From: Bacteroidales bacterium
GTDB taxonomy: Bacteria; Bacteroidota; Bacteroidia; Bacteroidales; UBA4417
DNA: 64,000 bases
Direction of reading: 5' to 3'
Assembly: GCA_038322655.1 (NCBI GenBank)
Contig: JBBQGD010000001.1
Location: 7,871 to 71,870 of the forward strand
Shown here: in pieces, positions 3,354 through 61,282 of the stretch
How positions within the stretch are numbered: position 1 is the stretch's first letter
Layout: each line of letters opens with the position of its first letter
Program-made: the position numbers and the translations under genes
The notes under the pieces: generated by a model
Database searches by the model: none
Told to the model about the DNA's origin: nothing
Seen by the model: the letters and a program-made list of their open reading frames with translations, nothing else

Positions 3354-3406
3354 CGTTGGATGAGGGATTTTGTGAATTTTATGAGAGTGGTTTGGTAATA
3401 CTTTTA

Positions 3407-5338: not shown

Positions 5339-5398
5339 AGTTAATTATAAATTGGTCAGCGTGAAAGCCGGGGAACCCCGGATACATTATTTAGCGGG

Positions 5399-5406
5399 CA
5401 AAGGTA
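5399..5406 (-). promoter_or_regulatory. Candidate Bacteroidetes -7 promoter box (TACCTTTG) for mutA-mutB
   Basis: Plus-strand caaaggta is TAccTTTG on the minus strand and matches the Bacteroidetes TAnnTTTG -7 consensus. It sits 60 nt upstream of the mutA ATG. The leader contains the small hairpin ccgggg/ccccgg (5368-5381). Only the -7 element matches. Confidence 0.3.
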
Positions 5407-5532
5407 TAAATATTTGTAAACATGAGCATTCTTTTGTTAATTGAATAACAACTCAACTAAAAAATTAATGTTACATTTACAGGTAAAAAATAAGACTTCC
5501 GAATTTAAGTTAACATTTTATCCATTGCTTTT

Positions 5533-23624: not shown

Positions 23625-23632
23625 TACATTTG
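23625..23632 (+). promoter_or_regulatory. Candidate -7 promoter box (TACATTTG) for gatE-gatD
   Basis: tacatttg matches TAnnTTTG. It overlaps the ORF-track TTG start (23630) and lies 24 nt upstream of the ATG at 23657. Confidence 0.45.
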
Positions 23633-23656
23633 GACCGGTTTAAACTTTTCTTTCCA

Positions 23657-25624: not shown

Positions 25625-25670
25625 GAATTGGAATTTGTGGATGAAATATTACTTAAAATTAGAATTAGAA

Positions 25671-34439: not shown

Positions 34440-35073
34440 TTTTATACAAGATTTCAGATACATCATGTTCAGAATAATAAAATAGTTTTAATGAACTGAG
34501 TCCATTTTAATTGAAATTGTTTTTGTCTGGCTGTTAGTGCTAAGTAATATTTAGGAAGTAATTAGTTAAGTGATGTTATAAAACTGATTTGCACCGGATT
34601 TTGTGTCTTAAAACCAAGCTGATTTCAAAAGTAAACCAATGGATTATCACGATTTCATTATCCCGGGAATGTTTTCTTCTATTAAGTTTTGTACAAAAAT
34701 AATTAATTATTCCGCTTTGTGCAATATGACAGGTAGTTTTTATACTTTGCCATAGCGAAATCTGTGGAAATCAGGAATTTCTGACTAACCCTACAATTTC
34801 CGATTGGATAGCGTGATTAAAACTTTCTGATTGATTAAGTGTTAAATTTATAGTGCATGTAGAAGTCACTGATTTGAAAAAATAATTCCTCTCAAATTTA
34901 ATGTCTGGATTATTTTGGTAGTCAATGTAACTTACATGATTTTAACACAAAGCCATTGTTGAACTACAACAAATGTATTTAATGTATGTTTGAGAATAAT
35001 CCGGCAAAATGGCTCATAAATTTTTACCAACAATAAGAAACTACTATTAAATCATGTTGTTTGCCTTCTTATA

Positions 35074-38955: not shown

Positions 38956-38984
38956 ATAAAATTTGCTTCCGGGCATATAAATGG

Positions 38985-39059: not shown

Positions 39060-42000
39060 TTATTTTAGTACCAATGAGTATTCGATGATCTCTAGTAATT
39101 TTGTTTTGCTCACTGGTTTTGTAACATACTCATTACAGCCTGATGTAAGTGCTTTGTTTTCATCTTCAGGGGTTACATGTGCAGTAAGAGCTATAATAGG
39201 TATATCGGGCATGAAAGTCCTGATTTGCTTTGTTGCTTCAAAGCCATCCATCAAAGGCATTTTAATATCCATAAGTACTAAGCTGATGTCCGGATGATTA
39301 CGGCAGATGTCTACAGCTTCGATGCCGTTTTCGGCCCGAAGGACCTGGTATGAAGCATAAAGTAATACTATTTCAATGTATTTGAAATTGGAATCATCGT
39401 CTTCGGCAACCAGGATTAATGGTTTATTTTCTTGCTCTATTAGTTTTGGAGTATCACTAATTTTTGGAAGTGTGCGAATCGGATTTTCAGAAAAAGGAAG
39501 TGTAAAATAGAATTTTGAACCTTTACCTCTTTCGGTATCAATGCGCAGGTTGCCACCGAGTAATTTAACCAGGCCGTTCGCTATGGTAAGTCCAAGTCCG
39601 CTTCCTTCATATCCTCGTGTCGACGAAACATCGGCCTGCATAAAAGCATCGAAAATAATATTCAATGCTTCGGGCTTAATCCCGGAGCCTGTATCACTTA
39701 CAGAGAATATTATTTCCGTATCATTTATTTCATAGCCAAGGGTAATTGCCCCTTTTTGAGTGAATTTAAAGGCATTGTCAAGTAAATGCGTAATTATCTT
39801 TCTAAGTTTTTCTATATCAGTATTTAGTATAACCGGATCATTAGAAATAGGTTTCAGGGTAGTTAGTTCAATATTTTTAAGTGTAGCGTTCTCAGTAAAA
39901 TCATTGTATATTTCTTTGATTAATTTATCGATATTCGATGGCCGCCTGATGATTTCGAGGGTTCCTGAAACGAGCAACGAAATATCCATATAGCTGTTAA
40001 TGGTATTAAGCAGACGTTTGCTGCTTTTTTTAATAACAGAAAAGAATAGTTCATGTTCTTCAGGACTTGTATCAGGGTTCAGGGTCATTTCGGTAAACCC
40101 AAGTATGCCATTCAAAGGTGTTCGTATTTCGTGTGAAATATTATTGATAAATGCTGTCTTTAACCTATCACCTGCATCTGCTTTATCAAATGCTTCCTTC
40201 ATATCAAGAATTGATTTCTGGCGCTGGATGGAAAGGCTTACCTGACCGGCAATGAATTCAAGTAATTTAAGGTCATTTTCATTGTAGGTATTTGAATTAT
40301 GGTAATCCTGAATAACAATGGCGCCATATGGTTTGCCATTTAAAGTTAAAGGAACTCCAAGCCAAATTTCGGAATAGGTGCCAATAAGATTAATCTCGCC
40401 GGTTTCAACAAGTTTTTTATATTCCTCATACTTAAGCATGAGTGATTTATTGTGTTTAATCACATAACCGGTCAGAGACTTTTCAGCAGGCCATTCGGAA
40501 ATAGTATCTCTCTCATCGCTTTCAGAAGCCGTGGAAAGCATGTCAGTATCTTCGTGGTAAAAAGCAATATAAAAGTTTTTTGTATTTATTATTGTGCTTA
40601 ATTCATTTTTAACGATTTCAAGTAATTGATTTACATCATTAGTTTCGAACACCTGCTTCGAAATATTGAATATAACATGTTGAATATCTTCTTTGTGCTT
40701 CTGCTCAGTAACATCTTCTTTTATTCCAAGGAAGTGCGCTATTTCTCCATTTGGATTTGTAATCGGCGAAATGGATGCACGTTCCCAATAGAGTTCTCCG
40801 TTTTTCCTGCGGTTATGAAACACGCCTTTCCATTCGTTGCCCGATTTTATAGTGTCCCACATTACCTCATATTCTTTGGGCGTGGTTTCATCCGATTTAA
40901 GGATACGGGGATTTACGCCGACAAGTTCCTCCAGAGTGTAACCTGATATCAGGCAGGCGGCCGGATTAGCATATTCGATTGTGCCATCGGTATCAGTAAC
41001 TAAAATTGATTCAGGACTCTGTTCTACTACCTGGGACAGTTTCTGAAACTCCTGTTCAGCTCTTTTTCGCTCTGTTAAATCAACAATATGGGTAATGAAA
41101 AATTTTGGATTATTTAATTCGTCACACACCAGCGAAACGAAAACATAGGCCCAGATAATTTTTTTATTTTTCGATATATATCGTTTTTCGAACGATGCAT
41201 TTTCAATTTTGCCGGCAACTATTTTCTTAAGGAATTCTACGCCGATTGTAAGATCATCAGGATGGGTTATATCATTAAAATGCAAATGTTTCATCTCTTC
41301 CTCAGTATACCCAAACAGTTTGGTGAAGGCAACATTTATTTTTTGAAAAATTCCGTCTAAGCCTATGATATTCATGCTGGTTGCTGCGTAATCAAAAGCA
41401 TGTCGAAAGCGGGTCTCGCTCTCAAATAAAGCAGTTTCGGATTTCTTTTGTTCGGTTATATCTATAAATACACAATAGGTTTGCCTGAATGACCCGTCCG
41501 GATTGTACCCGATGCAACCTTCATAGGACACTATGATATACTCTCCCGTTTTCTTCCTGAGCTTAAAAAGTGTTTTTTCAAGGTATCCTCTTTTCTTAAA
41601 AGCCGGGAAATTGATTTTAAACAGCTCAACAGAGTCAGGATGCATAAAATCACCAAACCATTTACCTATTACTTCCTCCCTGGTATATCCAAGTGTTTTT
41701 CCCCACATGGGATTGATATCGATTAAACAACCATCATTGTCCAACGATTGGTATGCAATGGGTGCGTTTTCGTAAAGTGCACGGAATTTCTCTTCACTAA
41801 TACGTTGGGATTCTTCTGCTTCTTCTTTCTTTTTCTTTTGTTCAAGGTTATTAAGCGCAAGTCCAAGGTCATTAGAAATTTCAATAAAAAGGGATATTTC
41901 TTCTTCATTTGTAACCAACTCGTTTGGCATCGAAACTGCAAGATACCCATGAAGTCTTTCGTGGTATTGCACTTTGCTGATGAGAGTGCCTTTATCAGGA

Positions 42001-42716
42001 TAAAACTTATATAGGGGACAATCCTTACATTTCTGGTTGTTATGAATTGAGTAGATTTGGTTGATTTCATTATTCAAGGTCTCTAGACAGAGAGGTAAAA
42101 AGCCTTCTTTAAATTGATCAGCAAATGTTTCGGCATTTTCATCTAATCCTGCTGATGAAACATCAAGAAATGTTCCCTGCTGGTCGACAATAAGAAACCA
42201 GGCGCTTGAATATGTCCTTGTTGAAATGAGTGTCTGGCAGGTTTTCTGCAACAACTCCTCGCGGGATTCGGCCCTGACGATAAGTTGATTTACATCACGT
42301 ATGGCTTTCAGAATTTCATTCAGGTGGAGTATATGTCTTTCCATCCGGTTTTTATGCAAAGCCATTTCAATGTTCGAATGTAACTCGCGTTCCTGAAAAG
42401 GTTTTAAAATGTATCCGAATGGTTCGGTTATTTTGGCACGCTCCAGAATATTGGTATCGGAAAAAGCAGTAATGTATATAACAGGTATTTGATACTTTTC
42501 CTTTATTTCAGTAGCAAGCTGAATTCCGTCTTTATTCCCTTTCAGGAATATATCCATGAGTATAAGGTCAGGTATACCTGATTTCAGGCATGTATAAAAA
42601 GCATCAGCTGACGATGCAATACCTGTGACTTGATACCCCATATTTTTGAGGGTATTTTTCAAATCTTCAGCAGTAATTCTTTCGTCTTCTACAAGCAGGA
42701 TCTTAGTTTTACTCAT
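39060..42716 (-). CDS. REC-GAF-PAS(x3)-GAF-HisKA-HATPase-REC hybrid histidine kinase
   Basis: 1218 aa. The N-terminal receiver shows ILLVEDE...LILMDIFL...ITAFS...ILKP. H-box is AFINNISHEIRTPLNG, G1 DTGSGI, G2 GSGLGL. The C-terminal receiver shows LVAEDDD...LVLMDIKMPLMDG...VTKP. Its ATG overlaps the upstream kinase stop (ATGA at 42713-42716). Confidence 0.9.
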   Translation of the reverse strand: MSKTKILLVEDERITAEDLKNTLKNMGYQVTGIASSADAFYTCLKSGIPDLILMDIFLKGNKDGIQLATEIKEKYQIPVIYITAFSDTNILERAKITEPFGYILKPFQERELHSNIEMALHKNRMERHILHLNEILKAIRDVNQLIVRAESREELLQKTCQTLISTRTYSSAWFLIVDQQGTFLDVSSAGLDENAETFADQFKEGFLPLCLETLNNEINQIYSIHNNQKCKDCPLYKFYPDKGTLISKVQYHERLHGYLAVSMPNELVTNEEEISLFIEISNDLGLALNNLEQKKKKEEAEESQRISEEKFRALYENAPIAYQSLDNDGCLIDINPMWGKTLGYTREEVIGKWFGDFMHPDSVELFKINFPAFKKRGYLEKTLFKLRKKTGEYIIVSYEGCIGYNPDGSFRQTYCVFIDITEQKKSETALFESETRFRHAFDYAATSMNIIGLDGIFQKINVAFTKLFGYTEEEMKHLHFNDITHPDDLTIGVEFLKKIVAGKIENASFEKRYISKNKKIIWAYVFVSLVCDELNNPKFFITHIVDLTERKRAEQEFQKLSQVVEQSPESILVTDTDGTIEYANPAACLISGYTLEELVGVNPRILKSDETTPKEYEVMWDTIKSGNEWKGVFHNRRKNGELYWERASISPITNPNGEIAHFLGIKEDVTEQKHKEDIQHVIFNISKQVFETNDVNQLLEIVKNELSTIINTKNFYIAFYHEDTDMLSTASESDERDTISEWPAEKSLTGYVIKHNKSLMLKYEEYKKLVETGEINLIGTYSEIWLGVPLTLNGKPYGAIVIQDYHNSNTYNENDLKLLEFIAGQVSLSIQRQKSILDMKEAFDKADAGDRLKTAFINNISHEIRTPLNGILGFTEMTLNPDTSPEEHELFFSVIKKSSKRLLNTINSYMDISLLVSGTLEIIRRPSNIDKLIKEIYNDFTENATLKNIELTTLKPISNDPVILNTDIEKLRKIITHLLDNAFKFTQKGAITLGYEINDTEIIFSVSDTGSGIKPEALNIIFDAFMQADVSSTRGYEGSGLGLTIANGLVKLLGGNLRIDTERGKGSKFYFTLPFSENPIRTLPKISDTPKLIEQENKPLILVAEDDDSNFKYIEIVLLYASYQVLRAENGIEAVDICRNHPDISLVLMDIKMPLMDGFEATKQIRTFMPDIPIIALTAHVTPEDENKALTSGCNEYVTKPVSKTKLLEIIEYSLVLK

Positions 42717-44803
42717 TTCGGATACGGATTAAAAGTAATTGTAAATATAGTACCTTTTTTGTTATCAACTTCAATTTCTCCATCCAACTGTTCTGTTGCA
42801 AGGATCCGGATCAGGTAAAGACCCAATGATGATGAATCTGTAAACTGTATATCATTTGGCAAGCCTATTCCGTTATCGCCTGCGCTTATTTGCAATTTTT
42901 TATCTGGCAAGGACTTAACAGTGATAAAAATTTCAGGCCTGGGTTCGAAAATATAGTTCGTGGGAAATGCATATTTGAGGCTGTTTGAAATAATTTCATT
43001 TAATATTAGCCCACAGGGTATGGCATAGATAAGAGGAATATTTACATTCTCAATTTCTGTGTGAATTTGTATCTTTTTCTGGTCGGTGAGGTATGCCCGG
43101 AAAAGCTCAGCCAGCAGCGAACCCGAATACTCTTTTAGGTTTATCTCTGCATAGTTTCCTGTTTGATATAGTTTTTCGTGAACCAGGGCAATGGATCGTA
43201 TTCTGTTTCGCGATTGCTCCAGGGTTTCTTTAATTGTTTTGTTGTCAATTTTATTAGCCTGCAGGTTAAGTAGGCTCGAAACCACCTGTAAGTTGTTTTT
43301 TACACGGTGATGTACTTCGCGAAGCAAAATTTCCTTCTCTTTCAGTGTTGCAAGAAGTAAATCTTCAGCTTTTTTGCGTTCGGTGATATCTCGGGCAACA
43401 GTGATGACCTTTTTTAATTGAGATAGCTCAAAAGTACTGCTCGAAATTTCGACAGGAAACAGGGTGCCATTCTTCTTTTTATGAAATTGTTCACCGGAAA
43501 TTAGTTCGTTATCACTGTTTGTGGAATCATTCTGAGTTGGTAATGACGATAATTCTGAACCCTTCATGGTTTTTAACTCTACATCCGAATAGCCATATTG
43601 TTCTGATGCTTTACGGTTAACCTCTTCAATAAGGCCTGTATTGCCATCGGTTAAAAATATAGCATCGGGTATAGCGTTGTAAACTGCAACTTGTTTATCA
43701 AGATTAGCTTTCAGTGTGGCGGCAAGCTGAGAGGAAAGTTTTAACCGGTATCGGTTTTTAAGAAGCAATACTGCCAAAAAAAAGATTAGTAAACTTATAA
43801 GTGTACCTCCAAACAGGACAAGAATTACATCCTGGTGAAAATAAAAGGAAGAAATATCCATAGCCTTTGAAAAATATAAGGTCCAGTTTTTACCTTTAAA
43901 GACAAAGGGTAATTTCAATCTTAATATTTTCGAATCAACATATTTCTTTTTACTAATGGTTTGGCTGTCAAATAATAGCGCTTCAGGGAGTATGCTGTCA
44001 TTGTCATAAATCTGCATTCGTATATTCTCTTTCAGCTTTTTTTCAGAATTACCAAGTACTCCTGACATAAAATTATTTATCCTGTATGCGCTATAAGCCC
44101 ATCCTTTAATTGCTTTTCGCCGCTCAGCTATTGTATTGATGGGCATCCCTGAACGATAAACCGGAACATACATTAACGTTCCGGCCTGTATATCCTTATT
44201 GGTTTCCTGAACCAGCGTAACTTTGTCTGCCAGGGAAGCAATATTTGAATCGCAGGCCTTATTCATGGCCTTACGCCGGATTGAATCTGAATACATATCA
44301 TACCCAAAAGCTTCCTTGTTACGACCCGAAAATGGCTCTATATATATAATTGTGGTATATATTCTCCGTGGTCCGGCCGGTTTAATGCTATAGTCAGGGA
44401 AACCTGATTTACGGATATTTTGTTCGTGTTTCATCAATAAGCTGCTGTCCACTATCATTGCATATCCTAATCCCTGAGACTCAGGTAGAAGTACTTGTAT
44501 TTTCTGATTGGTAAAAAAAACATTCCACTCTTGTCGCGTAACTGTATCGCTGGCTTCGATAAAAGCGGCGCCGGTTCTGAGTACTGCTTCATGTGCATAG
44601 AGCCTGGCATTCACATTGGCCTTAATATCACTACATTCGAACGAAAAGTCTTGCAGGGCGTTTCTTTCAATTTCTTGTTTGGTATTATACGTGTAAATAC
44701 CTGTTAAGGTCAATGCAACGAATAGAATTATCCATGCACTTATTAAATTAATGATTGATTTTGACTTTATTTTATGCCCTGAATCAGGCTTTGTTTCTGT
44801 CAT
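42713..44803 (-). CDS. CHASE-domain, PAS, HisKA_2-type sensor histidine kinase
   Basis: 696 aa. TM1 is IINLISAWIILFVALTLTGIY. A roughly 290-aa extracytoplasmic CHASE-like domain follows (EPFSGRNKEAFGYDMYSDSIRRKAMNKA...GTLMYVPVY). TM2 is VILVLFGGTLISLLIFFLAVLLL. One PAS follows. The H-box EVHHRVKNNLQVVSSLLNLQ is typical of HisKA_2. The ATPase shows NEIISNSLKYAF, DNGIGLP and SLGLYLI. Confidence 0.85.
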   Translation of the reverse strand: MTETKPDSGHKIKSKSIINLISAWIILFVALTLTGIYTYNTKQEIERNALQDFSFECSDIKANVNARLYAHEAVLRTGAAFIEASDTVTRQEWNVFFTNQKIQVLLPESQGLGYAMIVDSSLLMKHEQNIRKSGFPDYSIKPAGPRRIYTTIIYIEPFSGRNKEAFGYDMYSDSIRRKAMNKACDSNIASLADKVTLVQETNKDIQAGTLMYVPVYRSGMPINTIAERRKAIKGWAYSAYRINNFMSGVLGNSEKKLKENIRMQIYDNDSILPEALLFDSQTISKKKYVDSKILRLKLPFVFKGKNWTLYFSKAMDISSFYFHQDVILVLFGGTLISLLIFFLAVLLLKNRYRLKLSSQLAATLKANLDKQVAVYNAIPDAIFLTDGNTGLIEEVNRKASEQYGYSDVELKTMKGSELSSLPTQNDSTNSDNELISGEQFHKKKNGTLFPVEISSSTFELSQLKKVITVARDITERKKAEDLLLATLKEKEILLREVHHRVKNNLQVVSSLLNLQANKIDNKTIKETLEQSRNRIRSIALVHEKLYQTGNYAEINLKEYSGSLLAELFRAYLTDQKKIQIHTEIENVNIPLIYAIPCGLILNEIISNSLKYAFPTNYIFEPRPEIFITVKSLPDKKLQISAGDNGIGLPNDIQFTDSSSLGLYLIRILATEQLDGEIEVDNKKGTIFTITFNPYPK

Positions 44804-44829
44804 ATATTAATAATTGATAGTAGGATTTC

Positions 44830-44837
44830 CAAAGATA
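44830..44837 (-). promoter_or_regulatory. Candidate -7 promoter box (TATCTTTG) for the CHASE-kinase operon
   Basis: Plus-strand caaagata is TAtcTTTG on the minus strand, 26 nt upstream of the ATG at 44803. Confidence 0.4.
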
Positions 44838-45510
44838 GAGAATTATAAATGGCAGACTGAAATTTTTCATTCTTGCTACCTTATTTCAATAGGAGACAGA
44901 GGAAATTTCGAAAAACTAAGCTGAAATTTAAACAGTCCCTGAAATAATCCATTTTGATTATACTATACAATTCAGGTATTGAAAAAATATCAAATTTTAG
45001 TTTGATCTTACATTTCTGAACTCGTTAAGTTATTATTCCCGATAAAAAATTTGTAAAGTTATTTTACTTACTATTAAACCTTTTACAAGGTATGATTATT
45101 ATCGAATATAATACAGTACTTTTACATAAAGATTCTTCCGGTCAGTTTGAAATACCAACATAAAGCAGAGTTTGAAAATATAATTTTTTTAGCATACTTA
45201 TACGGTCCGGCCCATGGGACAATTTGAGCAACGTTAAAATGCTTTTGGCTAAAGTGATGCGTTTACAAGTTGAATGCAGCTTTTAAAAACTTTATAGTCA
45301 AAATTCCCTATCCGCTTTTTGTTTTAGCAAGCTAAAAAACTGAAAAGTTGTGGTTACATTTATTAACCCCTGGTTATTAATCTATGCAAGGGTATAAATA
45401 TAATGCTTTGAACATGGAGAAAGATATAACGGAAGAGTTCCGATAACTTCTTCAAATCCGGGAAACGGTAGTATGAAAAAAAATATTCAATAGCTTGCAA
45501 ATAAATCAAT

Positions 45511-48500
45511 ATGAAATCTGCTGCTAAAATTAAAACACCTGTAAGCAATTTGAAAGAGGGTACTCAATTCAGCGACATTTTCGACCAGGAAGACATTCAG
45601 CGTTTACAGGATGCTTTTTCAGATGCTACCGGAGTAGCATCAATCATTACGTTGCCTGATGGAAAACCTATAACCCGACAAAGTAATTTTTGCCGTTTAT
45701 GCGATGAATATTTACGGAAGAATGACCATAGTTTGCCTGAATGTATGAATGCCATTGCCGTATCAGAAGTACAAGACTTTGCAAACGCGGTTATTCGGCA
45801 TTGCAGGTGCGGAGGTATGTATAATTTCAGTGTCAGAATAACAGTAAGCGGGATACATCTGGGTAACTGGATAATCGGACAGGTTCGTAGTGAGGAAACA
45901 GATGAAAAGAAACTGTTACAGTATGCTGACGAGTCAGGTGTTAACAGGCAGGATTTCCTGGAAGCTTTCGGCGAAGTCAGTGTTATGTCAATTGAACAGT
46001 TTAAAAAGGTGGCGAAAATGCTTTCAATATTCGTGCGCGATCTTTCTGAGAAAGCATATAATAACCTTCATTTAAAAATGCGCATAGCTGAGTCGGAAAA
46101 AACTATGCAGCAAATGCAGCAAGCTGCTGAAAATATTTCTGTTACACTCAATTCCATTGGTGATGCTGTAATAACTACTGATCATAAAGGACTGATTAGC
46201 TCTATAAACCCTGTAGCTGAAAACCTTTGTGGCTGGATTGAAACTGAAGCTATCGGTAGACCGCTATCTGAGGTTTTTAAGATTATTAGTGATAAGACCA
46301 GTGAGCCTGTCGAAGATCCTGTAAACCAGGTTTTGCGAAGCGGCAAAATTGTTGGACATACAAATCATACAATTCTGATTTCCCGCAACGGGAAAGAATA
46401 CCAGATATTTGATAGTGCAGCACCTATCAAAAATAGAGATGGAAGCATTCGGGGCGTGGTTTTAGTTTTTTCAGATGTTACTGAAAAGTATATAGCTCAA
46501 AAAAAAGTTGAAGAAAGCGAAACAAAATTCAGGAATGTTTTTGAAAATTCAGTTAATGGGAAATCTATAACCACTTTAGACGGAAAGTTGAAAACTAATA
46601 AAGCTTTCCGCCAGATGTTAGGCTACACCGAAAATGAATTAGCAGATCGGAATTGGAGAGAAATTACCCACCCGGATGATATCAGCCAAAATGAGAAAAT
46701 TACTTCTTTAATACTTACTGGTGAAAAAACTACTGCACGTTGGGTGAAAAGATATATTCATAAAAATGGAAACATAATTTGGGCTGATATTAATACTACA
46801 TTACAACGTGATAAAGATGGAAATCCAGAATATTTTATTACAGCAGTCAACGATATCAGTGAACGTATTCAGATTGAAGAAACTCTGCAGAAGGAACGCT
46901 TGCTGTTTCGCACCATTATCGACAATATTCCGGATTCAATTTATTCGAAGGACTTGTATGGCCGCAAAACTCTGGCTAATACTGCTGAAGTTCATTTATT
47001 AAGAGCACCATCAGAGGCTGAGGTTATAGGTAACGATGATTTTTCATTTTACCCAAAGGAGGTGGCCGAAAGATATAAAGCGGACGATCAGTCAGTGCTG
47101 ACAACAGGTTTGCCTATACTTAACCGTGAAGAATGTATATATGATAATCAAGGTCATAGAAAATGGCTGCTATCCTCAAAAATTCCTTTAAGGGATAAAG
47201 ACAACCGGGTTATCGGTCTGGCAGGTATCGGACGCGATATTACTGAGCGCAAACTGGCAGAGGAAGCTGTGAATGAAAGCGAGGAAAAATACCGCTTGAT
47301 TTTCGATAACTCGCCTTTGGGAATATTATCATTTGATGATAAAGGCGTTATAGTTGCCTGCAATAATAGTTTTGCTGATATTATTGGTACAACTGTTGAA
47401 AAATTGGTGAACCTCAATATGCTTGCCCTCGCCGACAAAAAAATGGTTTCGTGTATAGAACTGGCACTAAAAGGGAACATTGGATTGTATGAGGATGTTT
47501 ACCAGTCAGTTATCTCAAAAAAGAGAGTGCCGGTCAGAGCGTTATTTACACCAATCAAAATTGGTGAAAAGCAATTTCGTGGTGGTGTGGGAATTATTGA
47601 AGATATAACTGAACGAAAGCGTGCTGAAGAGGCTTTACTTGTGAGTAAAGAAAAGTACCGGGCTATTTTTGAAAATATACAGGACGTTTTTTACCAAACC
47701 GATCTTGAAGGAACAGTCCTCGAAATAAGTCCTTCCATAAAGTACTTTGGTGAGTTTGAAAGTGCTGATATAATTGGAAAGAATGTTTCTCAGTTATATT
47801 ATAATCCCGACGAGAGAGAATTTTTTTTATCAGAAATAAAAAAAAGAGGCGATCTCAGAGACTATGAGGCAATATTAAAAACCAAAACGGGCACTAAAAT
47901 ATATGTGTCGGTAAACGCTATTTTAATACCTGATGCCGATGGAAAGCCACATCATATTGATGGAGCGATAAGAGATATTACGACACGAAAAAAAGCTGAA
48001 ATGGCTTTGCAGAAAAGTGGGTCTGTATATCGTAACCTGGTTCAGAGAATGCCCGATGGCGTTTATAAAAGTACTCCTGAAGGTAAATTTGTTGATGTTA
48101 ATCCCGCCATGGTGAGGATGTTGGGCTACTCAAGTAAAGAAGAACTTATGGCCATTGATATTAAGAAAGAATTGTATTTTGATCCAACAGACCGCGAAAG
48201 CCTGGTATTGCAGGAACAACTGGAGGAAATGGGAGTTTACCGCCTGAAAAAGAAAGACGGATCCGAAATCTGGGTCGAAGATCATGGTTGGTACACTAAG
48301 GATGAAAAAGGGAAAATAAATTTCCATGAAGGGATAATGAGGGATATAACCGAGCGCTACCGGGCAGATAAAGCGCTTCGGGAGAGTGAAGACCAAAACC
48401 GGGCCATACTGCAAACTGCTATGGATGGATTTTGGATGGATGATCAAGAAGGGAATCTGCTTCAGGTTAACGAAACTTATTGTCGCATGAGCGGATATAG

Positions 48501-50682: not shown

Positions 50683-50751
50683 CCCAGGTTTTTCTTTTTT
50701 CTCATATTGTAAATATGGAGAAATGAGATAATATAACCCAATATTCCTCTT

Positions 50752-53700: not shown

Positions 53701-54015
53701 CTGCTTTTGCTGCTTTTAAAAGAATTCAGCAGGGAAACACTGGTAGTATCAACAGGTACCGATGCTATTGAGGACTGTCGCCTCTACCCGGATATTGACC
53801 TTGTGATGATGGATATTAAAATGCCGGTAATGGACGGGTACGAGGCTGCCAGGCAAATACGTCAATTCAACAAGGATATTGTTATCATAGCACAAACGGC
53901 TTATGGACTGAGCGGTGATGAAGATAAGGCTATTGCTGCGGGTTGCAACGATTATATAACAAAGCCGTTGGACATCATCACTTTTAAGGGATTAATACAG
54001 AAATATTTTAAATAA
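50752..54015 (+). CDS. Polytopic-membrane (about 6 TM), 4 PAS, HisKA-HATPase-REC hybrid histidine kinase
   Basis: 1087 aa. The N-terminal 190 aa contain about six hydrophobic helices. Four PAS repeats follow. The H-box, CA and REC are near-identical to both neighbours. It starts 69 nt after the upstream kinase. Confidence 0.9.
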   Translation: MQKMRKAIRFIFADDEDFSLENRLFLSSVIVGILTSFTGSIFNFILVTSLTAVIIPLLLTVLLLVIYYFARFKKIIEPIMIPIIPLAFVAISTIWVFNGGINGSNIMPAFVILILGLIVYPDKLKKYVILLFITLFGFVYILQLYRPDLIVNFTSQTERWIDSLFTLMYTSYFIFLIIKYVHKQYTAERFKSEESERKYRELFENSPDAIAIYMDGKLQVVNKESMRLMAASSADELIGKPVMQFVHPDFRAMVGMQMKKAVDKKTILQAVEEKFIRLDGSIVDVEVKAMPITLDTKPAVQLIIRDITERKLIENAVRESEEKYRILFRDSPDAYLIISDGIFVDCNKATEILMRADRTQIIGKSPNALSPEFQPDGKTSAQKVKEKISEAFLSGKISFEWLHSRPDGSDLFVEVSIAAIMQDGMQVLFTTWRDISERKTIEKELFKLRNAINRSGEIVFMTDKKGVFTFVNPGFTTVYGYTASEVIGKQTPRILNSIIKNSDVNKIFWNTLLQGQDVKGESKNKNKDGSIIEIEGSANAIFDENKNLIGFLGIQRDITERKHAQDDLIKSENFLKEAQIIASLGIYTLDLASGYWESSEILDTIFGINADYDKSVEGWTSVIHPDWQKIMSEYFSQEVIGRKADFDKEYKIIRQNDGEERWVHGIGRLKFDENQNPVSMVGTIHDITDRKNTEQELTKAKEHAEESDRLKSAFLANMSHEIRTPMNGILGFAELLKMPGLTGEKQHEYIGIIKKSGERMLNIINDIIDISKIESGQMQVLISEANINEQIDYLYAFFKPEAENKNIQLSCRCGLPTDESIIKTDKEKVFAILTNLVKNAIKYTDSGTIEFGYGLKTEVLASGDEVLPNVLQFYVKDTGIGIPGDRQQAIFDRFIQADIADTRAFQGAGLGLSISKAYIEMLGGGIWVESEEGKGSTFYFTIPYNHVLKVKPVEAAISSQQETVDKTKKIKVLVVEDDKTSVMLLLLLLKEFSRETLVVSTGTDAIEDCRLYPDIDLVMMDIKMPVMDGYEAARQIRQFNKDIVIIAQTAYGLSGDEDKAIAAGCNDYITKPLDIITFKGLIQKYFK

Positions 54016-54024
54016 TAGCTTGAA

Positions 54025-57000
54025 ATGGCGGACTACGAAAACAAAACTAAAGCAGAACTCATAAAGGAGTTAGAGGAAATTCAAAAGGAATATAAAACAT
54101 TAAATGCTTCACATAAAATACATAACTTACATTCGATCAAGCAAGTTGAAGGAACTTTAAAAGAGGGTGAAGCATGTTTTAACAAATTTCTCGGAAATAA
54201 TTATGCGATAATTCTTTTTGTCAACCCTGCTAACAACCGGATCGTTTTTGCAAATGATTCAGCAATTCAATTTTATGGTTGGGAAAAGGAAGAATTGTTG
54301 CAAATGACTATTGATCAGATCAACACTTTAACTCCGGATGAAATAAGACTCAAAATAGCAGAAGCCATAAAGAAAAAACAGAATTATTTTGTTTTCAGAC
54401 ATCAGGTTGCCGATGGAAGTATTCGCGATGTGGAAGTTTTCCAAAATAAACTCGAGGTGAATAACGAAATCATTTTTTCACTCATAGTTCATGATATTAC
54501 TGCTCGCGTACTGGCCGAAGAAGAAATCACAAACAAGGAATTGCAATTAAAGCAGATTATTGATTCTGCAGGTGATGCCATGTTTCTGGCTGATTTTGAA
54601 ACTCAGCGGATAATCATGGTAAACAGGTTGGCTTGCGAAAGCCTGGGATATTCAAATGAAGAATTATTAAATAAAAAGATTATTGAAATAAGTTCAAATT
54701 ATAAAACCGAAGTTGAAATTGCAGCAATATGGCATAAAATGAAAATCGGGAAACCAATAACCATTAAAAGTATTCATAAACGCAAAGATGGAAGTGCTTT
54801 CCCTGTTGAAGTGCGGAGTAGTTTCCTTATTCAAAATGGCAAAAAGACCATTCTTGGGTTTGCCCGCGATATTTCAGATCGTTTAAGAAATGAACAATTA
54901 CTGAAAGCCAATGAATTCAAATTCAGGACATTTGCTGATTTTACTATTGATTGGGAGTATTGGGAGAATGAAAATAACAGTATCAGCTATATGTCACCTT
55001 CCTGCCTGAAAATGACGGGTTACACGCAGGATGAATTTATTTCTGATCCTTCCCTGTTAGAAAAAATTATCCATCCTGATGATCGGAATTTTTCAACTGT
55101 ACATCATTTTATGACATGTAAATTTGAAAACAGGGATATGATTAATACTATGGAATTCCGGATTATCAGGAAGGATGGTTCTGTTATAAACATTTTTCAC
55201 ATCTGCAGACCGATTTTTGATGATGATCAGAAATTTGTCGGTCGTCGTATAACAAACAGAGATATAACAGAAAGAAAGGTTAAAGATAAGGCATTGCGTG
55301 AAAGTGAGGCTCTTTACCGCAATCTGGTCGAAGTTCTGCCTGATGGCATTTACAAAAGTACGCACAATGGTGTTTTTGTTGATGTTAATCCGGCAATGGT
55401 TAACATGCTGGGGTATGATAGCAAAGACGAATTAATGGCAATTGATATAAAATCCCAATTATATTTTGAGGTTGAAGATCGTGAAGACGTTGAATTAAAA
55501 GAAAACATTTTGGAAATAGGGACCCATCGGATGAAGAAAAAAGATGGTTCCGAAATCTGGGTCGAAGACCGTGGATGGTTAACCTCGGACAAAACCACAA
55601 ACATAATTTATCATGAAGGTATTATGCGCGATGTTACTGATCGCAGAAAAGCTGAGGAACAACTTACCAAGCTCTCGACTGCTATTGAACAAAGCCCCGT
55701 TTCTGTGGTAATTACTGATACCAATGGGAATATTGAATATGGCAATCCAAAAGTTGCTGAAGTGACAGGTTACAAACTTGAAGAAATAATTGGTAAAAAT
55801 ACCCGGATATTCAATTCAGGGGAAAAACCAAAAGCTGAATATCAAAATCTCTGGGCTACAATATCTTCAGTCAAAGTATGGTCGGGCGAATTTCATAACC
55901 GCAAAAAAAATGGCGAATTATACTGGGAGCAGGCATCCATATCTCCTATTCTCAATGAAGAAGGTGGAATTACCCATTATCTGGCTGTAAAAGAAGATAT
56001 AACCGAAAGAAAAAGAGCTGAACAAATACAACAAACCATATATACAATTTCAAATGCAGCGCTGACATCCATTGAATTAGATGAATTAATTAAAATCATC
56101 AGCATTCAACTTGGCAAACTGCTCGATACATCCAATTTTTATATCGCCTTCTACAACGAAGATAGCGGCATGCTTTCCACCAAGTTCGAGAATGATGAAA
56201 AAGACCTCATTGATTCATGGTCAGCTGAAAAGTCAGTAACGGGTTATGTTATCAGGAATCAGAAATCGCTGCTTGCATTTGATACGGATATAACAAAACT
56301 ACTCGAAGCCGGTGAAATAGACATGATAGGCACTCCTTCAAAAGTCTGGTTGGGGGTCCCGCTATTTATTGATAAAAAAGTAATTGGTGCTGTTGTAGTC
56401 CAGGATTATGAGAACAGGGATGCATACAATGAACAGGATAAAATGATGCTTGAATTTATTGCTGACCAGATTAGTATGGCTATTCATCGAAAAAAAGCAG
56501 AGGAAGATTTAATTTCTGCACTTGAAAAAGCTGAAGAAGCAGATCGTTTAAAGTCCGCTTTCCTTGCCAATATGAGCCACGAAATCCGGACCCCCATGAA
56601 TGGGATCCTTGGTTTTGCTGAGTTGCTCAAAATGCCTGGTCTTACTGGAAACCAGCAGCAAGAGTATATTGATATTATAAAAAAAAGTGGCGAACGTATG
56701 CTTAATATCATAAATGATATTATTGATATTTCGAAAATAGAGTCAGGATTGGTTGAGATTCTGAATAAAGAATCGAATATAAATGAGCAAATTCAATTTA
56801 TTTATAATTTTTTTGAACTTCAGGCTAAAAGTAAAGGAATCAAGTTGAATTTTACTAACAAATTTGCAGCACACGAAGTCATTATTTTTACCGACCAGGA
56901 AAAACTTTATGCCATACTTACAAACCTGGTTAAAAATGCCATTAAATATACTGACCGAGGTTCGATAGAATTAGGATTTGAAATTATAACTCTGAAGCCT

Positions 57001-57675
57001 GCTGAACCCGTGCTTGAATTTTATGTAAAAGATACCGGAATCGGTATTCCTGTTGACAGACAAAAAGCGATTTTTGATCGTTTTATCCAGGCCGATATTG
57101 CCGATACCAGGGCCTTTCAGGGAGCCGGGTTAGGCTTGTCGATTGCTAAAGCATATGTTGAAATGCTTGGAGGCAAAATGTGGGTCGAAAGCGAAGAAGG
57201 CGCCGGTTCAACATTCTATTTTACTATTCCTTATAATCCTGTTCAGAAAGTAAAAACGCTTGTACAAGATTCAGCTCTGCCTGCCGGGGAAAGAGATGAG
57301 GTTAAAAAACTGAAGGTATTGATTGTAGAAGATGATGAGATATCTGTTATGCTGCTGATGCTGATGTTGAAACCGTTCAGCAGGAAAACTTTAATAACAG
57401 ATACAGGAGTTGAAGCTATCGAGATTTGTCGGAGCAACCCGGATATCGACCTGGTTTTAATGGACATCAAAATGCCTGTAATGGACGGGTACGAAGCCAC
57501 CAGGCAGATACGGAAATTTAATAAAGAAGTAGTTATTATTGCACAAACAGCCTATGGACTGAGTGGTGACGAGGAAAAGGCGATGGCAGCCGGAAGCAAT
57601 GGTTATATTGCGAAGCCACTGGATCTATCTGTTTTAAAGGGACTGATACAATCACATTTTGATAATATCAGTTGA
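54025..57675 (+). CDS. 5 PAS, GAF, HisKA-HATPase-REC hybrid histidine kinase
   Basis: 1216 aa with no TM segment. The GAF segment is [16 protein letters not shown]...[22 protein letters not shown]. H-box is [16 protein letters not shown]. REC shows VLIVEDDE...[13 protein letters not shown]...IAKP. It starts 9 nt after the upstream kinase stop. Confidence 0.9.
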   Translation: [1216 protein letters not shown]

Positions 57676-57909
57676 TAATAAAATTAGTATACTGCTTCTA
57701 TGCACTAAATAATACGTTTTATTTTTTATGAGCATGACGTGCTTTAAACAAACTCCACTATTCCTGTTGAAAAGGGCCGATTTAGGATTCAGTGATCGAT
57801 TAATAATAGAACCTCATTTTTCAATCCGGTATCTTCTTATACCAATCGAATTGACTTTTTAATTTTTTCTTTTCTATCAGGGTTAAATGAAATACAAATA
57901 TGGAAGCTT

Positions 57910-59592
57910 TTATGATAATGAATGAAGTGTAAAATGAAATGAACTTCCTTTTTCTTCTTCACTTTCGGCCCATATTTTCCCACCTTGTTTTTCAACCAAC
58001 TCCTTGCACATTATCAGCCCAAGTCCTGATGAAAGCTCACCTTCAGTGCCTTTGCGGTTTATTTTTGCCGAAAGGCTGAATAAATTTTCAAGTATAGCTT
58101 TGTTCATACCTATACCATCATCTTTAACTGAAATTGTAACGTTGGATGCTTCAGTTTCCTTAGCATTTATTTCAATCTGGCCTCCTTTTGGGGTGAATTT
58201 TATTGAATTTGATATCAGGTTCCTTAAGATTGTTTCAGTCATTTGGTTATCCACCATTACATTGATAGTATCCGGAACGTTATTTACCAGGGTTATTTTC
58301 TTCGCTTTGGCAGATTCCTGGAGCAGGTTAATGCATTTTTGAACCGGTTTATTCAGTACAATTGTTTGAGGGTTGTAAATGCTGTTCCCCCGCTGAAGTT
58401 GCGACCACTCAAGCAATCCCTGGAGTAACTGAACTATACTGCTGGCTGAAGTATGAATGGATTGTGCGATTTCCCTGATATGGTCCTTTGAAAAACTATC
58501 TATTTCAGCCGTTATCATTCCGGTTAATCCAAGAATCCCATTCATAGGGCTTCGTAGATCATGCGAAACAATTGAAAATAATTTATCCTTTTCAACATTA
58601 AGCTTCTCCAGGCTTTTGTTTTTATTGATAATTTCTCTTTCAGCCAGTTTGCGGGCCGAAATATCTGATAGAATTACAGCAAAATGATTTTCACTGGATT
58701 GATATATTTCAGCTGTATAAAATATTTTCAACTCACGCGAATACGACTCAAAATGAACAGGCTTTCCCGTTATTGCAACTTCAGTATATTTCTGTATAGT
58801 TTTTTGGGATATGGTTGGAACAACTTCCAGAATTGTTTTGCCAAGCACATTTTCTTTTCTGAAGCCGGTTAGTTGTTCATATTTTTCATTTAAGTACGTA
58901 AACCGGTAATTATATGGTTTACCTTCATTGTTAAAGACAATTTTATGAACTGCAAGGCCCTGGTTCATGTTGGTAACCAGCGACCGGAACTGAAGTTCAC
59001 TCGAAGCAAGCTCATCCAGAAGTTCAGTATTGTCTTCCTGGTCTTTCAGTATCTTACCGATAATTAATGTAGCCAGGGGGTAAATGCCAAGTATAGTGAA
59101 AGTCAAGGTTTTAAAGGCAATAATCCGCATTCCGGAAGGAATAGTAATTAAAAGTATAAGCATGGCCAGATGCACTACCAGCCCAAATATATACAGATTA
59201 ACTGTAGTTATGGGTTTATGCATTTTCTGCTTTCTATAGTAAAAAATCAAACCGATAAGGTATGATGAAACTATAACTGAAACTCCTGTTATCAATCCTC
59301 CTCCACCCAGGTAAACCCGGTAAAGTAACGCAATAAGTGTCGCAATCAGCCCGGCAACAGGACCAAAGAAGAGTGTACACAGGCTTAGAACCACACTACG
59401 TCCATCGAAAATAATTCCGACTGAAAGCTCAAATGGATTAAGCATTCCGATTAAAGCAACTGCACCGAAAAGCAGGCCTTGCGAAATGATCCCGGGTATC
59501 GTTTTCCGCTTCCAGTATGTAACAATAAATCCTGATAATGTGCTTACCGCAATAAGTAGCGATAATTTAAATATAAGCTCGATAATTATCAT
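57910..59592 (-). CDS. 5TMR-LYT (LytS-type membrane domain), PAS, HisKA-HATPase sensor kinase
   Basis: 560 aa. The N-terminal membrane module with DGRSVVLSL...FFGPVAGLIA and a second half repeat resembles the 5TM receptor domain of LytS/YhcK. One PAS follows. H-box is LFSIVSHDLRSPMNG and G2 is SSGLGL. No REC. Confidence 0.85.
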   Translation of the reverse strand: MIIIELIFKLSLLIAVSTLSGFIVTYWKRKTIPGIISQGLLFGAVALIGMLNPFELSVGIIFDGRSVVLSLCTLFFGPVAGLIATLIALLYRVYLGGGGLITGVSVIVSSYLIGLIFYYRKQKMHKPITTVNLYIFGLVVHLAMLILLITIPSGMRIIAFKTLTFTILGIYPLATLIIGKILKDQEDNTELLDELASSELQFRSLVTNMNQGLAVHKIVFNNEGKPYNYRFTYLNEKYEQLTGFRKENVLGKTILEVVPTISQKTIQKYTEVAITGKPVHFESYSRELKIFYTAEIYQSSENHFAVILSDISARKLAEREIINKNKSLEKLNVEKDKLFSIVSHDLRSPMNGILGLTGMITAEIDSFSKDHIREIAQSIHTSASSIVQLLQGLLEWSQLQRGNSIYNPQTIVLNKPVQKCINLLQESAKAKKITLVNNVPDTINVMVDNQMTETILRNLISNSIKFTPKGGQIEINAKETEASNVTISVKDDGIGMNKAILENLFSLSAKINRKGTEGELSSGLGLIMCKELVEKQGGKIWAESEEEKGSSFHFTLHSLS

Positions 59593-59779
59593 TGAATGTA
59601 GTTTGAAGTTGAGTATTCAGGCAATCAAATATCCTGATAGCGGTGTTTAGACGGATTGTGATTTTTTTTTGTCACTTTTTTGTAAATTTACACTTTCATT
59701 CAACCTCACCAGAAAGTAAACATAAGGTAAGAATGATTTTAAGCAAACTGTTTTTGGAATTTCAACAGCCACAGTTAAA

Positions 59780-61282
59780 TTATTGTGATTGAGGTAAGGT
59801 AAAATTAAATGTACTTCCTTGCCCTTCAGTACTGTCGGCCCATATTTTTCCACCCTGCTTTTCAACAAACTCTTTACAAAGAATCAGTCCCAGTCCTGTT
59901 GACGGCTCGCCTTCGGTACCTTTCCTGTTTATGTTTTCAGTAAGTATAAAAAGTTTGCTATGTATATCCGGATTCATTCCTATGCCGTAGTCTTTCACTG
60001 AAACCTGCAATATATTATTTTCGGTTTTAGCAGCTGATATTTCTACAATACTGTTTTTAAAAGAAAATTTGATGGCATTCGAAATCAAATTCCTTACAGT
60101 GGTTTCAAGCATATGTATATCTGCAAATACTACATGATGATCAGCAATATTGATTTGAAGTTCAATCCCTTTTTTATTGGCAGCATCTTTCATCAGCTCA
60201 ATGCTTTTATTCAACGACGTCTTAAGAAACATGGGCTGCGGTTCGAATTTAATTTTACCGCGCTGCATTTTTGACCATTCGAGCAGGTTTTCGATCAGCC
60301 GGTAAATATTGACCGCCGACGAACGCATTGTAGTTGCTATTTCTTTAAGCTCGAATGCTGATAAACTCTCAATATCCTCAGCCATTATACCTGTCAGGCC
60401 AAGGAATCCATTCATAGGACCCCGCAGGTCGTGGGCAATAATGGAAAAGAACTTGTCTTTTTCAGCACTGCTTGCATTGAGTAATTCATTTTTCAACCTC
60501 AGTTCTTCTTCTGATTTTTTACGCTGGGTAATTTCTTTCGAGATACAGGTAACCCACAAAATATCACCCCTTATGTCTTTTATCGGGTCAGCCATAGTGA
60601 TGTAATAATTCTCTTCTCCCAGTGGATTAACAACCTTTACTTCAATTTCACCTTTTTCTCCTGTTTGGAATACTTTCCGCACTAGCCTGAGCCTTTTTTC
60701 AGCTTCATCATGTGGAAAAATATCAAAAGGAGTTTTGCCTATTATTTCCTCAGGTTTTTTCCCGAACTGAACCGCAAAAGCATCATTTACAAACCTGTAC
60801 GATTCATCTGGATTAAAACTAAAAATCGGGTCGCTGGAGTACTGAACAAGTAAGCGGTATTTTTCTTCACTTATCCGCAATGCTTCTTCCGCTTTTTTGC
60901 GTTCGGTCATTTCGCGACCGACAGCAATTACAACTTTTTGTCCGAACCACATGCCTGGGGTAAGGCTTATTTCTTTTGGGAAAACCGAACCGTCTTTTCG
61001 TAAACCCCAAAATTCGAATCTAACTGTCTTTCCGTTGTATGCTTCCTTTATATAACTGATAGTCTGATCCAGATCGTTTAAGCCGGGTGCAGATAAAAAC
61101 CCTGGATTTTTACCAATAAAATATTCCTTGTCATAACCATACAATCTTTCAGCAGCAGCGTTAACATCCAAAAAATGTCCTTCTTTGTCCATAATATAAA
61201 TAGCATCGTTCAGGCTGTTGATTATTCCCTTGTACGTGCTTTCAGATAATGTAAGTTTTGATTCAGATTCTTCAGCTTTCAT
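59780..61282 (-). CDS. Cytoplasmic 2-PAS sensor histidine kinase (no receiver)
   Basis: 500 aa. H-box is FFSIIAHDLRGPMNG, N-box RNLISNAIKFS, G1 DYGIGM, G2 STGLGL. Confidence 0.9.
   Translation of the reverse strand: MKAEESESKLTLSESTYKGIINSLNDAIYIMDKEGHFLDVNAAAERLYGYDKEYFIGKNPGFLSAPGLNDLDQTISYIKEAYNGKTVRFEFWGLRKDGSVFPKEISLTPGMWFGQKVVIAVGREMTERKKAEEALRISEEKYRLLVQYSSDPIFSFNPDESYRFVNDAFAVQFGKKPEEIIGKTPFDIFPHDEAEKRLRLVRKVFQTGEKGEIEVKVVNPLGEENYYITMADPIKDIRGDILWVTCISKEITQRKKSEEELRLKNELLNASSAEKDKFFSIIAHDLRGPMNGFLGLTGIMAEDIESLSAFELKEIATTMRSSAVNIYRLIENLLEWSKMQRGKIKFEPQPMFLKTSLNKSIELMKDAANKKGIELQINIADHHVVFADIHMLETTVRNLISNAIKFSFKNSIVEISAAKTENNILQVSVKDYGIGMNPDIHSKLFILTENINRKGTEGEPSTGLGLILCKEFVEKQGGKIWADSTEGQGSTFNFTLPQSQ

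Follow-up and report, generated by a model that had tools for sequence, protein, structure and literature searches.

The subject of this work is a cluster of sensor histidine kinase genes in an uncultured Bacteroidales bacterium, contained in a window of 64,000 bp (the whole stretch of DNA analyzed; contig JBBQGD010000001.1 of assembly GCA_038322655.1, positions 7,871 to 71,870). Twelve histidine kinases, here named K1 to K12, were identified in the window by Pfam searches of the listed open reading frames (ORFs), and their genes take up 34,287 of 64,000 bp (54%). Seven of them (K6 to K12) follow one another in a run at 39060-61282, about 95% of which is kinase-coding, and five further kinases (K1 to K5) lie to the left of the run. 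An earlier reading of the sequence alone (the original prediction) had described every gene at 39060-61282 as a histidine kinase, had credited twelve kinases with about 34 of the 64 kb and roughly forty PAS domains, and had concluded that the run has no visible output partner. The first two claims are borne out: each of the seven ORFs encodes HisKA or HisKA_2 together with HATPase_c, with exactly the predicted boundaries, and 41 PAS domains were found in the window, 25 of them within the seven-gene run (PAS profile constructed iteratively from the window sequences, cut-off i-E<0.01). The third claim fails for K7: the translationally coupled gene next to it, K6, carries an N-terminal receiver domain (REC) and is probably its partner.

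All seven ORFs of the run are intact and encode proteins of 500-1723 amino acids (aa). Their domain composition was derived from Pfam, supplemented by hydropathy for K7, K9 and K11 and by the PAS profile for K8. On the minus strand, K6 (39060-42716) is a soluble hybrid kinase (REC, GAF, three PAS, GAF, HisKA, HATPase_c, REC), and K7 (42713-44803) is a membrane kinase with a CHASE domain (residues 87-278) between two transmembrane segments, followed by PAS, HisKA_2 and HATPase_c. The plus strand encodes K8 (45511-50682), a soluble hybrid with PocR, nine PAS, HisKA, HATPase_c and REC; K9 (50752-54015), a membrane hybrid with an unclassified domain of 5-6 transmembrane segments, four PAS, HisKA, HATPase_c and REC; and K10 (54025-57675), a soluble hybrid with five PAS, GAF, HisKA, HATPase_c and REC. 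Again on the minus strand, K11 (57910-59592) is a membrane non-hybrid kinase (5TM-5TMR_LYT, PAS, HisKA, HATPase_c), and K12 (59780-61282) is a soluble non-hybrid kinase with two PAS, HisKA and HATPase_c. The membrane domain of K9 (residues 1-200; 50752-51350, plus strand) consists of 5-6 helices, matches no Pfam family at E<=1 and represents an unclassified sensor module. The diversity of inputs that had been claimed is likewise seen: CHASE in K7, PocR in K8, 5TM-5TMR_LYT in K11, the 5-6 transmembrane domain in K9, Reg_prop/Y_Y_Y in K5, and GAF in K6 (twice) and K10.

The catalytic cores of these proteins are complete. Eleven of the proteins contain a HisKA domain scoring above the Pfam cut-off; K7 alone has HisKA_2 instead (96.9 bits). 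The H-[DE]-[LI]-[RK]-x-P box of the HisKA kinases aligns with H243 of EnvZ, and the H, N, G1, F and G2 boxes are intact in all 11 HisKA cores; in K7, the HisKA_2 motifs are present along with N, G1 and G2 equivalents. The six RECs, aligned with CheY, all retain the acidic pocket, the Asp, the Thr/Ser and the Lys.

The pair formed by K7 and K6 was compared across eleven loci that contain a CHASE/HisKA_2 kinase: the window, L002, L003, L005, L006, L007 (Accumulibacter), L008 (Ignavibacteriales), L009, L010 (Candidatus Kapaibacterium, GCA_046328995.1), L011 and L092. K7 (CHASE 184.5 bits) has hydrophobic segments at residues 12-30 and 326-344, and homologues with 44-84% identity were found in related assemblies. 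Read directly from the sequence, the TGA stop codon of K7 and the ATG start codon of K6 share an ATGA at 42713-42716 (minus strand); a 4-bp overlap of this type is also present in L002, L005, L010 and L092; in L003 the overlap measures 38 bp. In K6, Pfam detects two Response_reg stretches, two GAF_2 stretches, three PAS, HisKA and HATPase_c. The N-terminal REC (residues 5-120; 42357-42704, minus strand) was overlooked in the original prediction, whose domain inventory otherwise stood when the domain searches that it had proposed were run with hidden Markov models. By alignment with CheY, its active site comprises E10/D11, D55, T83 and K105, which are invariant in orthologues. It is followed by an N-terminal GAF domain (41847-42269, minus strand; GAF_2, 27.7 bits, profile positions 2-135 of 136). 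The C-terminal REC of K6 (residues 1101-1211, with D1150; 39084-39416, minus strand) is also supported by Pfam and the REC alignment, and the protein ends 7 residues beyond it.

Four cysteines of the N-terminal GAF domain of K6 (Cys160, Cys210 and the Cys230-x-x-Cys233 pair; 42018-42239, minus strand) are invariant in four orthologues and are kept in REC-GAF homologues down to 41% identity. This pattern suggests a candidate metal or Fe-S/redox site.

The N-terminal REC of K6 differs from the other receivers of the window in its affiliation. It is 45-51% identical (110-127 bits) to RECs of other phyla found downstream of HisKA_2 kinases in L007 and L009, whereas its comparison with the C-terminal RECs of the window and with other N-terminal RECs yields only 18-47 bits; by this measure of sequence relatedness, it is assigned to a REC subfamily that occurs after CHASE/HisKA_2 kinases. 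Its nearest solved relatives in the PDB are receivers of REC-PAS-GGDEF proteins, the ANTAR regulator Rv1626 and several PhyR receivers, PhyR being a substrate of HWE/HisKA_2 kinases (PMC5964349). The motif of the FATGUY receivers (SdrG, MrrA, Sma0114 and the REC of CckA) has been defined as PFxFATG[G/Y], spanning beta4 and the following loop (PMC9981736). At this position the K6 REC reads IPVIYITAFSD and its relatives read PV[IV]F[LS]TAY, so that the P, the aromatic residue, the T and the final aromatic residue agree with the motif, whereas F2, A and G differ. A search with the REC-GAF head of K6 also returned stand-alone REC-GAF(-PAS) proteins at 58-68% identity, and the REC subfamily is fused to many outputs.

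In 10 of the 11 loci, the gene directly downstream of the CHASE/HisKA_2 kinase starts with a REC. This neighbor is a K6 orthologue in the window, L002, L003, L005 and L092; a REC-GAF-PAS protein, then followed by a kinase, in L006; a REC-PAS-HisKA-HATPase protein in L007; a REC-PAS-PAS protein in L009, where a second HWE kinase also precedes a REC-PAS protein; a REC-PAS-HisKA-HATPase protein with the 4-bp overlap in L010, followed by a REC-sigma54-HTH_8 regulator; and a 200-aa REC protein in L011. A CHASE/HisKA_2 kinase followed by a REC-first protein is thus a recurring module across distant phyla.

Three of these loci deserve separate mention. In L006 (13358-17969), the most distant Bacteroidales-like relative, the K6 equivalent is apparently split: a 469-aa REC-GAF-PAS protein has a K6-type REC (80% identical), and the following 987-aa kinase has its own N-terminal REC-like domain lacking the acidic pocket residues. 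L010 (6001-12889) holds a compact and complete cascade, with the REC-sigma54 activator-HTH_8 regulator encoded 80 bp downstream of the REC-first kinase; it is a useful model for components that the Lentimicrobiaceae K7-K6 pair may be missing locally. L005 contains a second pair of a kinase and a REC-first kinase (1271-8516, minus strand), in which the gene for a 4HB_MCP-HAMP-GAF-HisKA-HATPase-REC protein overlaps by 11 bp with that for a REC-PAS...HK-REC protein (HK, histidine kinase) of 1427 aa; the transmitter of the latter is of the K8-K10 type (64-67% identical), and the pair adjoins a CheR methyltransferase gene.

The fold of the K6 head was modeled with AlphaFold2. In the model of residues 1-304 (pLDDT 85), the REC continues into a 40-residue helix (residues 109-148) that leads to the GAF domain, and the best full-length match in the PDB is a dual-sensor histidine kinase (6OAQ/6OAP; TM score 0.76, E 2e-15). 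K6 shows the structural hallmarks of Rec-controlled kinases, namely an N-terminal REC with an intact active site, a complete kinase core and, in the model, a long helix after alpha5 of the REC. Because of the ATGA overlap, the REC-first neighbor in 10 of 11 loci, the REC subfamily and the head fold, K7 can be assigned a visible partner: K6 is probably a Rec-controlled kinase acting with K7, like LvrB and ExsG. Kinase-kinase regulation, offered in the original prediction as an alternative output, gains support for the K7-K6 pair alone, from the coupling of the two genes and from the type of REC found after HisKA_2 kinases.

The next three genes, K8, K9 and K10, are separated by gaps of 69 bp (K8-K9) and 9 bp (K9-K10), and their transmitter-plus-REC modules are 64-71% identical to one another (K10 is 71% identical to K9 and 64% to K8). 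Across genomes, orthologous transmitters are 77-89% identical, the values for K8 and K9 against their L002 counterparts being 83% and 77%. Since the orthologues are closer than the paralogues, the triplication is older than the divergence of the genomes. The same comparison led us to reject concerted evolution or gene conversion as an explanation for the similarity of K8, K9 and K10. DHp helix 1 is identical in the three proteins and helix 2 nearly so, and their RECs are 60-73% conserved among themselves. Near-identical DHp sequences plausibly predict a common partner for K8-K10 and would allow heterodimers; related hybrid kinases are known to retain the ability of cross-phosphotransfer (PMC8175716). 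K10 combines a transmitter of the K8/K9 type with a K6-like sensor half (40% identity over 940 aa).

Considering all twelve proteins, the transmitters fall into three classes: HisKA_2 (K7), hybrid (K4, K6, K8-K10) and non-hybrid (K1-K3, K5, K11, K12). Identities are 39-48% between subgroups of the hybrid class and 36-52% in the non-hybrid class, where the K11 transmitter is 52% identical to that of K12 and 47% to that of K5. With three classes of transmitters, several partners are likelier than a single output shared by the whole locus.

The five hybrids (K4, K6, K8, K9 and K10) all end 7-20 residues past their C-terminal REC, which leaves no space for an Hpt domain. No match to HTH, GGDEF, EAL or Hpt at E<=0.01 was obtained with Pfam in any of the twelve kinases. 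In the intergenic ORFs of the window, of which one of 125 aa (8638-9015) encodes RidA, Pfam found no REC and, at E<=1, no Hpt. A scan of the window in six frames with the REC profile returned exactly six RECs, every one inside the five hybrids, and hence no stand-alone REC gene in any of the six frames of the 64 kb. On all these points, the original prediction of five hybrids without a terminal Hpt, of kinases lacking output domains and of a window free of separate response regulator and Hpt genes agrees with the searches. Because Pfam does detect an Hpt in a comparable hybrid kinase of L007, the absence of Hpt from the window is meaningful and not a failure of sensitivity. The L007 Hpt domain itself gave no match when compared with the six-frame translation by single-sequence phmmer, which is a weak test.

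The original prediction had also pointed out that the hybrids stop just after the REC. In a published census, HPt was detectable in only about 50% of Bacteroidetes species and was mostly stand-alone (PMC4558063), and by this standard the architecture is ordinary: hybrids without a fused Hpt are normal in this phylum, fused Hpt being uncommon in Bacteroidota. All five C-terminal RECs have the intact site expected in a multistep phosphorelay, and an Hpt is neither fused to them nor encoded nearby. The best PDB matches of the K10 C-terminal REC are receivers of Hpt-dependent relays (AHK5, RcsC, SLN1, CRE1 and Spo0F). The outputs of the five C-terminal RECs are probably unlinked to the locus.

The kinase genes are probably organized, judging from their order and spacing, in the short transcription units K7-K6, K8-K9-K10, K12-K11 and K5-K4. 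In Bacteroides promoters, the -7 consensus of the Bacteroidota is TAnnTTTG. A match to it, TATCTTTG, is located at 44830-44837 (minus strand), 26 nt upstream of the K7 ATG, and is conserved in the alignment of the window with L002, L003 and L092; the motif TAGTTTTG is found 78 nt upstream of K12. Within 200 nt upstream of the start codon, TAnnTTTG is present for K5, K7 and K12 and absent for K4, K6, K9, K10 and K11 (background 0.12 per 200 nt), so that among the kinases it occurs only before first genes of predicted units. Scans of the window against Rfam and for tRNA genes gave no match.

The divergent intergenic region between K7 and K8 contains the inverted repeat TGTAAAGTTATTTTACT at 45052-45068. 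L002 and L003 match the pattern TGTAAA-N5-TTTACA perfectly, the window and L092 with one mismatch each. In the four-genome alignment of this 700-bp region, which has diverged elsewhere, just two islands are conserved, and the palindrome is one of them. The frequency of the pattern in the window shows no enrichment (13 matches versus 9.1 +/- 3.0 expected); it is the conservation across the four genomes that marks the palindrome as a candidate operator.

The array as a whole is real, conserved and old, a cluster of paralogues built by duplication. K7 is 68% identical to its relative in L002, 59% in L003, 56% in L092 and 49% in L005. A common arrangement is seen in L002, L003 and L092, where a PocR kinase and two hybrids are divergent from the CHASE kinase and the REC-first hybrid, with a Y_Y_Y kinase and a PAS hybrid beyond. 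L092 has a MASE8 hybrid in place of the third gene of its PocR unit (the K10 position); L005 keeps the K7-K6 pair and the right-hand neighbors and differs on the left side. The same gene order was recovered from independent assemblies in ENA, JGI and Logan. Seven kinases in a row are not explicable by chance placement, and tandem duplication together with retained synteny accounts for much of their adjacency, as the paralogues K8, K9 and K10 demonstrate.

To estimate how unusual the array is, kinase density was expressed as kinase coverage. Among loci found through K7 homology only, the kinase-coding share is 70% in Accumulibacter and 66% in Ignavibacteriales. Another 36 metagenome loci of at least 12 kb were anchored on generic hybrid-kinase patterns (VLMDIKM, KIL[LI]VEDE) and represent unrelated hybrid kinases rather than orthologues; in this rough, small and biased background, 5 of the 36 loci are at least 50% kinase-coding, one of them with six kinases in 19 kb. 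The run in the window is the longest among the loci compared. The original prediction regarded the density as unusual and conceded that routine kinase-only arrays with known cognate regulators in related genomes would weaken its case. Comparable arrays do occur (in L002, L003, L092 and partly L005, in Accumulibacter and Ignavibacteriales, and in the five metagenome loci), whereas no cognate regulators are known for kinase-dense loci of this kind.

Outside the run, K1 (9253-11916), K2 (12576-14615) and K3 (15144-16352), all on the plus strand, are soluble non-hybrid PAS (and GAF-like) kinases with transmitters that are mutually 41-46% identical. K4 (27103-30987, minus strand) is a soluble hybrid kinase with seven PAS domains, and K5 (30999-34466, minus strand) is a non-hybrid membrane kinase (Reg_prop/Y_Y_Y, PAS, HisKA, HATPase_c); the two genes are 11 bp apart, and the pair is kept with gaps of 10-14 bp in L002 and L092. 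Between K7-K6 and K5-K4 lie the genes for a DUF255 thioredoxin-like protein (35074-37095, plus strand) and for a ClC-type channel with CBS domains (37198-38976, minus strand); a separate TAnnTTTG box stands 16 nt upstream of the channel gene. Both genes are present in L003 and L005, the channel only in L002 and the DUF255 protein only in L092; no functional link of these two genes to the kinases is evident.

The remaining gene content fits a Gram-negative member of the Bacteroidales, since the window also encodes LptD, OstA and an S46 peptidase. The methylmalonyl-CoA mutase at its left end is 96% identical to a protein from a Lentimicrobiaceae metagenome-assembled genome and 87% identical to that of Lentimicrobium sp. 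Among the lipopolysaccharide-transport genes, adjacent genes for GatE (472 bits, cut-off 456) and GatD (499 bits, cut-off 310) were recognized by NCBIfam equivalog models at 23630-27056 (plus strand). GatDE are the subunits of a Glu-tRNA(Gln) amidotransferase that is usually regarded as archaeal; their presence here could be due to horizontal acquisition or could point to an under-appreciated bacterial GatDE.

Taken together, we consider it fairly probable that the locus is a conserved, duplication-built kinase cluster of several short units, with a cascade from K7 to K6, a partner shared by K8-K10, and Hpt and response regulators that are encoded at unlinked positions. The phosphotransfer steps that we infer are as follows. 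The top of the cascade would be K7, the membrane kinase with CHASE and HisKA_2, whose most likely target is Asp55 in the N-terminal REC of K6. K6 would integrate this phosphoryl signal with ligand or redox signals received by its GAF and PAS domains, autophosphorylate, and then hand the phosphoryl group to its own C-terminal REC. K8, K9 and K10 probably feed PocR, 6-transmembrane and PAS/GAF inputs into one shared downstream partner, as their almost identical DHp domains and similar RECs suggest. For the five relay-type C-terminal RECs, the most likely recipients of the phosphoryl group are an Hpt protein and response regulators from other parts of the genome.

Several observations weigh against this reading. 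The non-kinase neighbors of the K7-K6 pair, the CLC channel and the DUF255 protein, are conserved as well, so that the adjacency of K7 and K6 in close relatives could be plain synteny, and L008 is the sole locus of the eleven in which the CHASE/HisKA_2 kinase has no REC-first neighbor. For K8, the first gene of its predicted unit, the upstream region gave no TAnnTTTG box. Scans for sigma-70 promoters and intrinsic terminators performed at chance level and are uninformative for a Bacteroidota genome; the operon structure is for this reason read only from gene spacing and the TAnnTTTG motif. Finally, no Hpt was seen in the Lentimicrobiaceae loci read, and since about half of the Bacteroidetes species have no detectable HPt, the presumed unlinked Hpt may not exist.

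This last point leads to an alternative that we regard as rather unlikely, namely that there is no Hpt relay at all and that the C-terminal RECs of K4, K6 and K8-K10 are end points, serving as intramolecular regulators, as phosphate sinks or in the direct control of partners. Proteins that stop right after the REC, the lack of Hpt in the window and the related loci read, and the census figure of about 50% are all in line with it. On the other side, the RECs have complete active sites and resemble receivers of Hpt-dependent relays, their conservation of 60-73% among K8-K10 suggests a shared external partner surface, and Hpt domains, short and divergent as they are, usually stand alone in this phylum, for which reason their absence from 64 kb says little. 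A bolder version is a multikinase computer that is largely self-contained and does without a canonical Hpt protein in Lentimicrobiaceae, in which K8-K10 would heterodimerize or cross-phosphorylate their RECs, and the hybrid RECs would pass phosphoryl groups to the DHp domains of K11 and K12 acting as Spo0B- or ChpT-like phosphotransferases, so that many inputs would lead to one decision; we consider it quite improbable.

The original prediction had itself taken the whole 22-kb array, or all twelve kinases, for a dedicated integration device converging on a single unlinked output. The array order kept in L002, L003 and L092, the likely link from K7 to K6, the DHp specificity helices common to K8-K10 and the conserved palindrome in the divergent K7/K8 promoter region would suit such a device, and multikinase networks are known; against it stand the three distinct classes of transmitters, the equal synteny of the non-kinase neighbors, the MASE8 hybrid in the third slot of the K8 operon in L092, and the fact that nothing ties K11 or K12 to the rest. 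Old tandem duplication (paralogues 64-71% identical versus 77-89% for orthologues) accounts for much of the arrangement, and the term dedicated signal-integration locus goes beyond what was observed. We judge the single-output device unlikely. An artefact of assembly or annotation, or a set of pseudogenes decaying after a duplication burst, is hardly credible: the sequence does come from an uncultured-genome assembly, and repeated PAS modules can confuse assemblers, but the seven ORFs are intact with complete catalytic motifs, the independent ENA, JGI and Logan assemblies share the gene order, and orthologues are closer than paralogues, as under purifying selection.

The favored reading, a duplication-built cluster with a K7-K6 cascade, provides a concrete scheme of connections, open to testing, for part of a very dense sensor locus from an anaerobic lineage of uncultured Bacteroidales. 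It also carries a caution: where the receiving domain is part of a kinase, the lack of a regulator nearby should not be read as an anomaly. Where hybrids without Hpt send their signal, in a phylum in which Hpt is often undetectable, is a general question for which this locus would be a compact system.

Among the systems known, the K7-K6 pair is closest to those built on Rec-controlled kinases: LvrA, LvrB and LvrC of Leptospira, in which REC phosphorylation activates LvrB (PMC13269768), and BphP1, ExsG and ExsF of Rhizobium/Agrobacterium, in which it inhibits the ExsG kinase (PMC3899027). In these systems, as proposed for K7 and K6, the first kinase acts by phosphorylating a REC at the N terminus of the second, from which the signal is passed on, and the genes stand side by side; the long helix that extends the REC of K6 is likewise seen in LvrB. 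Unlike LvrB and ExsG, K6 has a GAF, three PAS and a second GAF between the REC and the DHp domain, plus a C-terminal REC. The upstream kinase is of the HisKA_2 type and the Rec-controlled kinase of the HisKA type in K7-K6, whereas ExsG, the Rec-controlled kinase of its system, is of the HWE type. The structural match of the K6 head is a dual-sensor kinase composed of REC, a cyanobacteriochrome GAF and a histidine kinase (PDB 6OAQ/6OAP/6OB8; Shin et al. 2019 PNAS, cited in PMC13269768), in which REC and GAF jointly control the kinase. Over about 300 residues, the two proteins share one fold, from the REC through the long helix to the GAF domain, and in our model K6 would likewise be one kinase integrating phosphoryl and GAF-sensed inputs. 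The two are only 17-18% identical in sequence. The GAF domain of K6 has four conserved cysteines instead of a bilin pocket, its head is separated from the DHp domain by three PAS and another GAF, and it has the C-terminal REC of a hybrid.

The array as proposed recalls the GacS/RetS/LadS/PA1611 network of Pseudomonas (PMC8498467, PMC8175716), where several hybrids of common descent feed one pathway. The Pseudomonas kinases are scattered, GacS has its own Hpt and the GacA/Rsm output is known, whereas the kinases of the window are contiguous, lack Hpt and have no assigned output. The combination of a HisKA_2 kinase with a distinct receiver subfamily is shared with the HWE/HisKA_2 networks of the alphaproteobacterial general stress response, with PhyR and the FATGUY proteins SdrG/MrrA (PMC5964349, PMC9981736); the K6 receiver differs in belonging to another phylum, in being fused to a kinase rather than single-domain or sigma-like, and in matching the motif only in part. 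K5 resembles the hybrid two-component systems of Bacteroides in its periplasmic Reg_prop/Y_Y_Y sensor and kinase core; in contrast to them, it has no fused REC and AraC-type HTH, the separate soluble hybrid K4 being encoded next to it, and K5 does not qualify as such a system. The parts of the locus are thus all of known kinds, and the modest new details are the recurring module of a CHASE/HisKA_2 kinase with a REC-first protein and the four-cysteine GAF head of K6.

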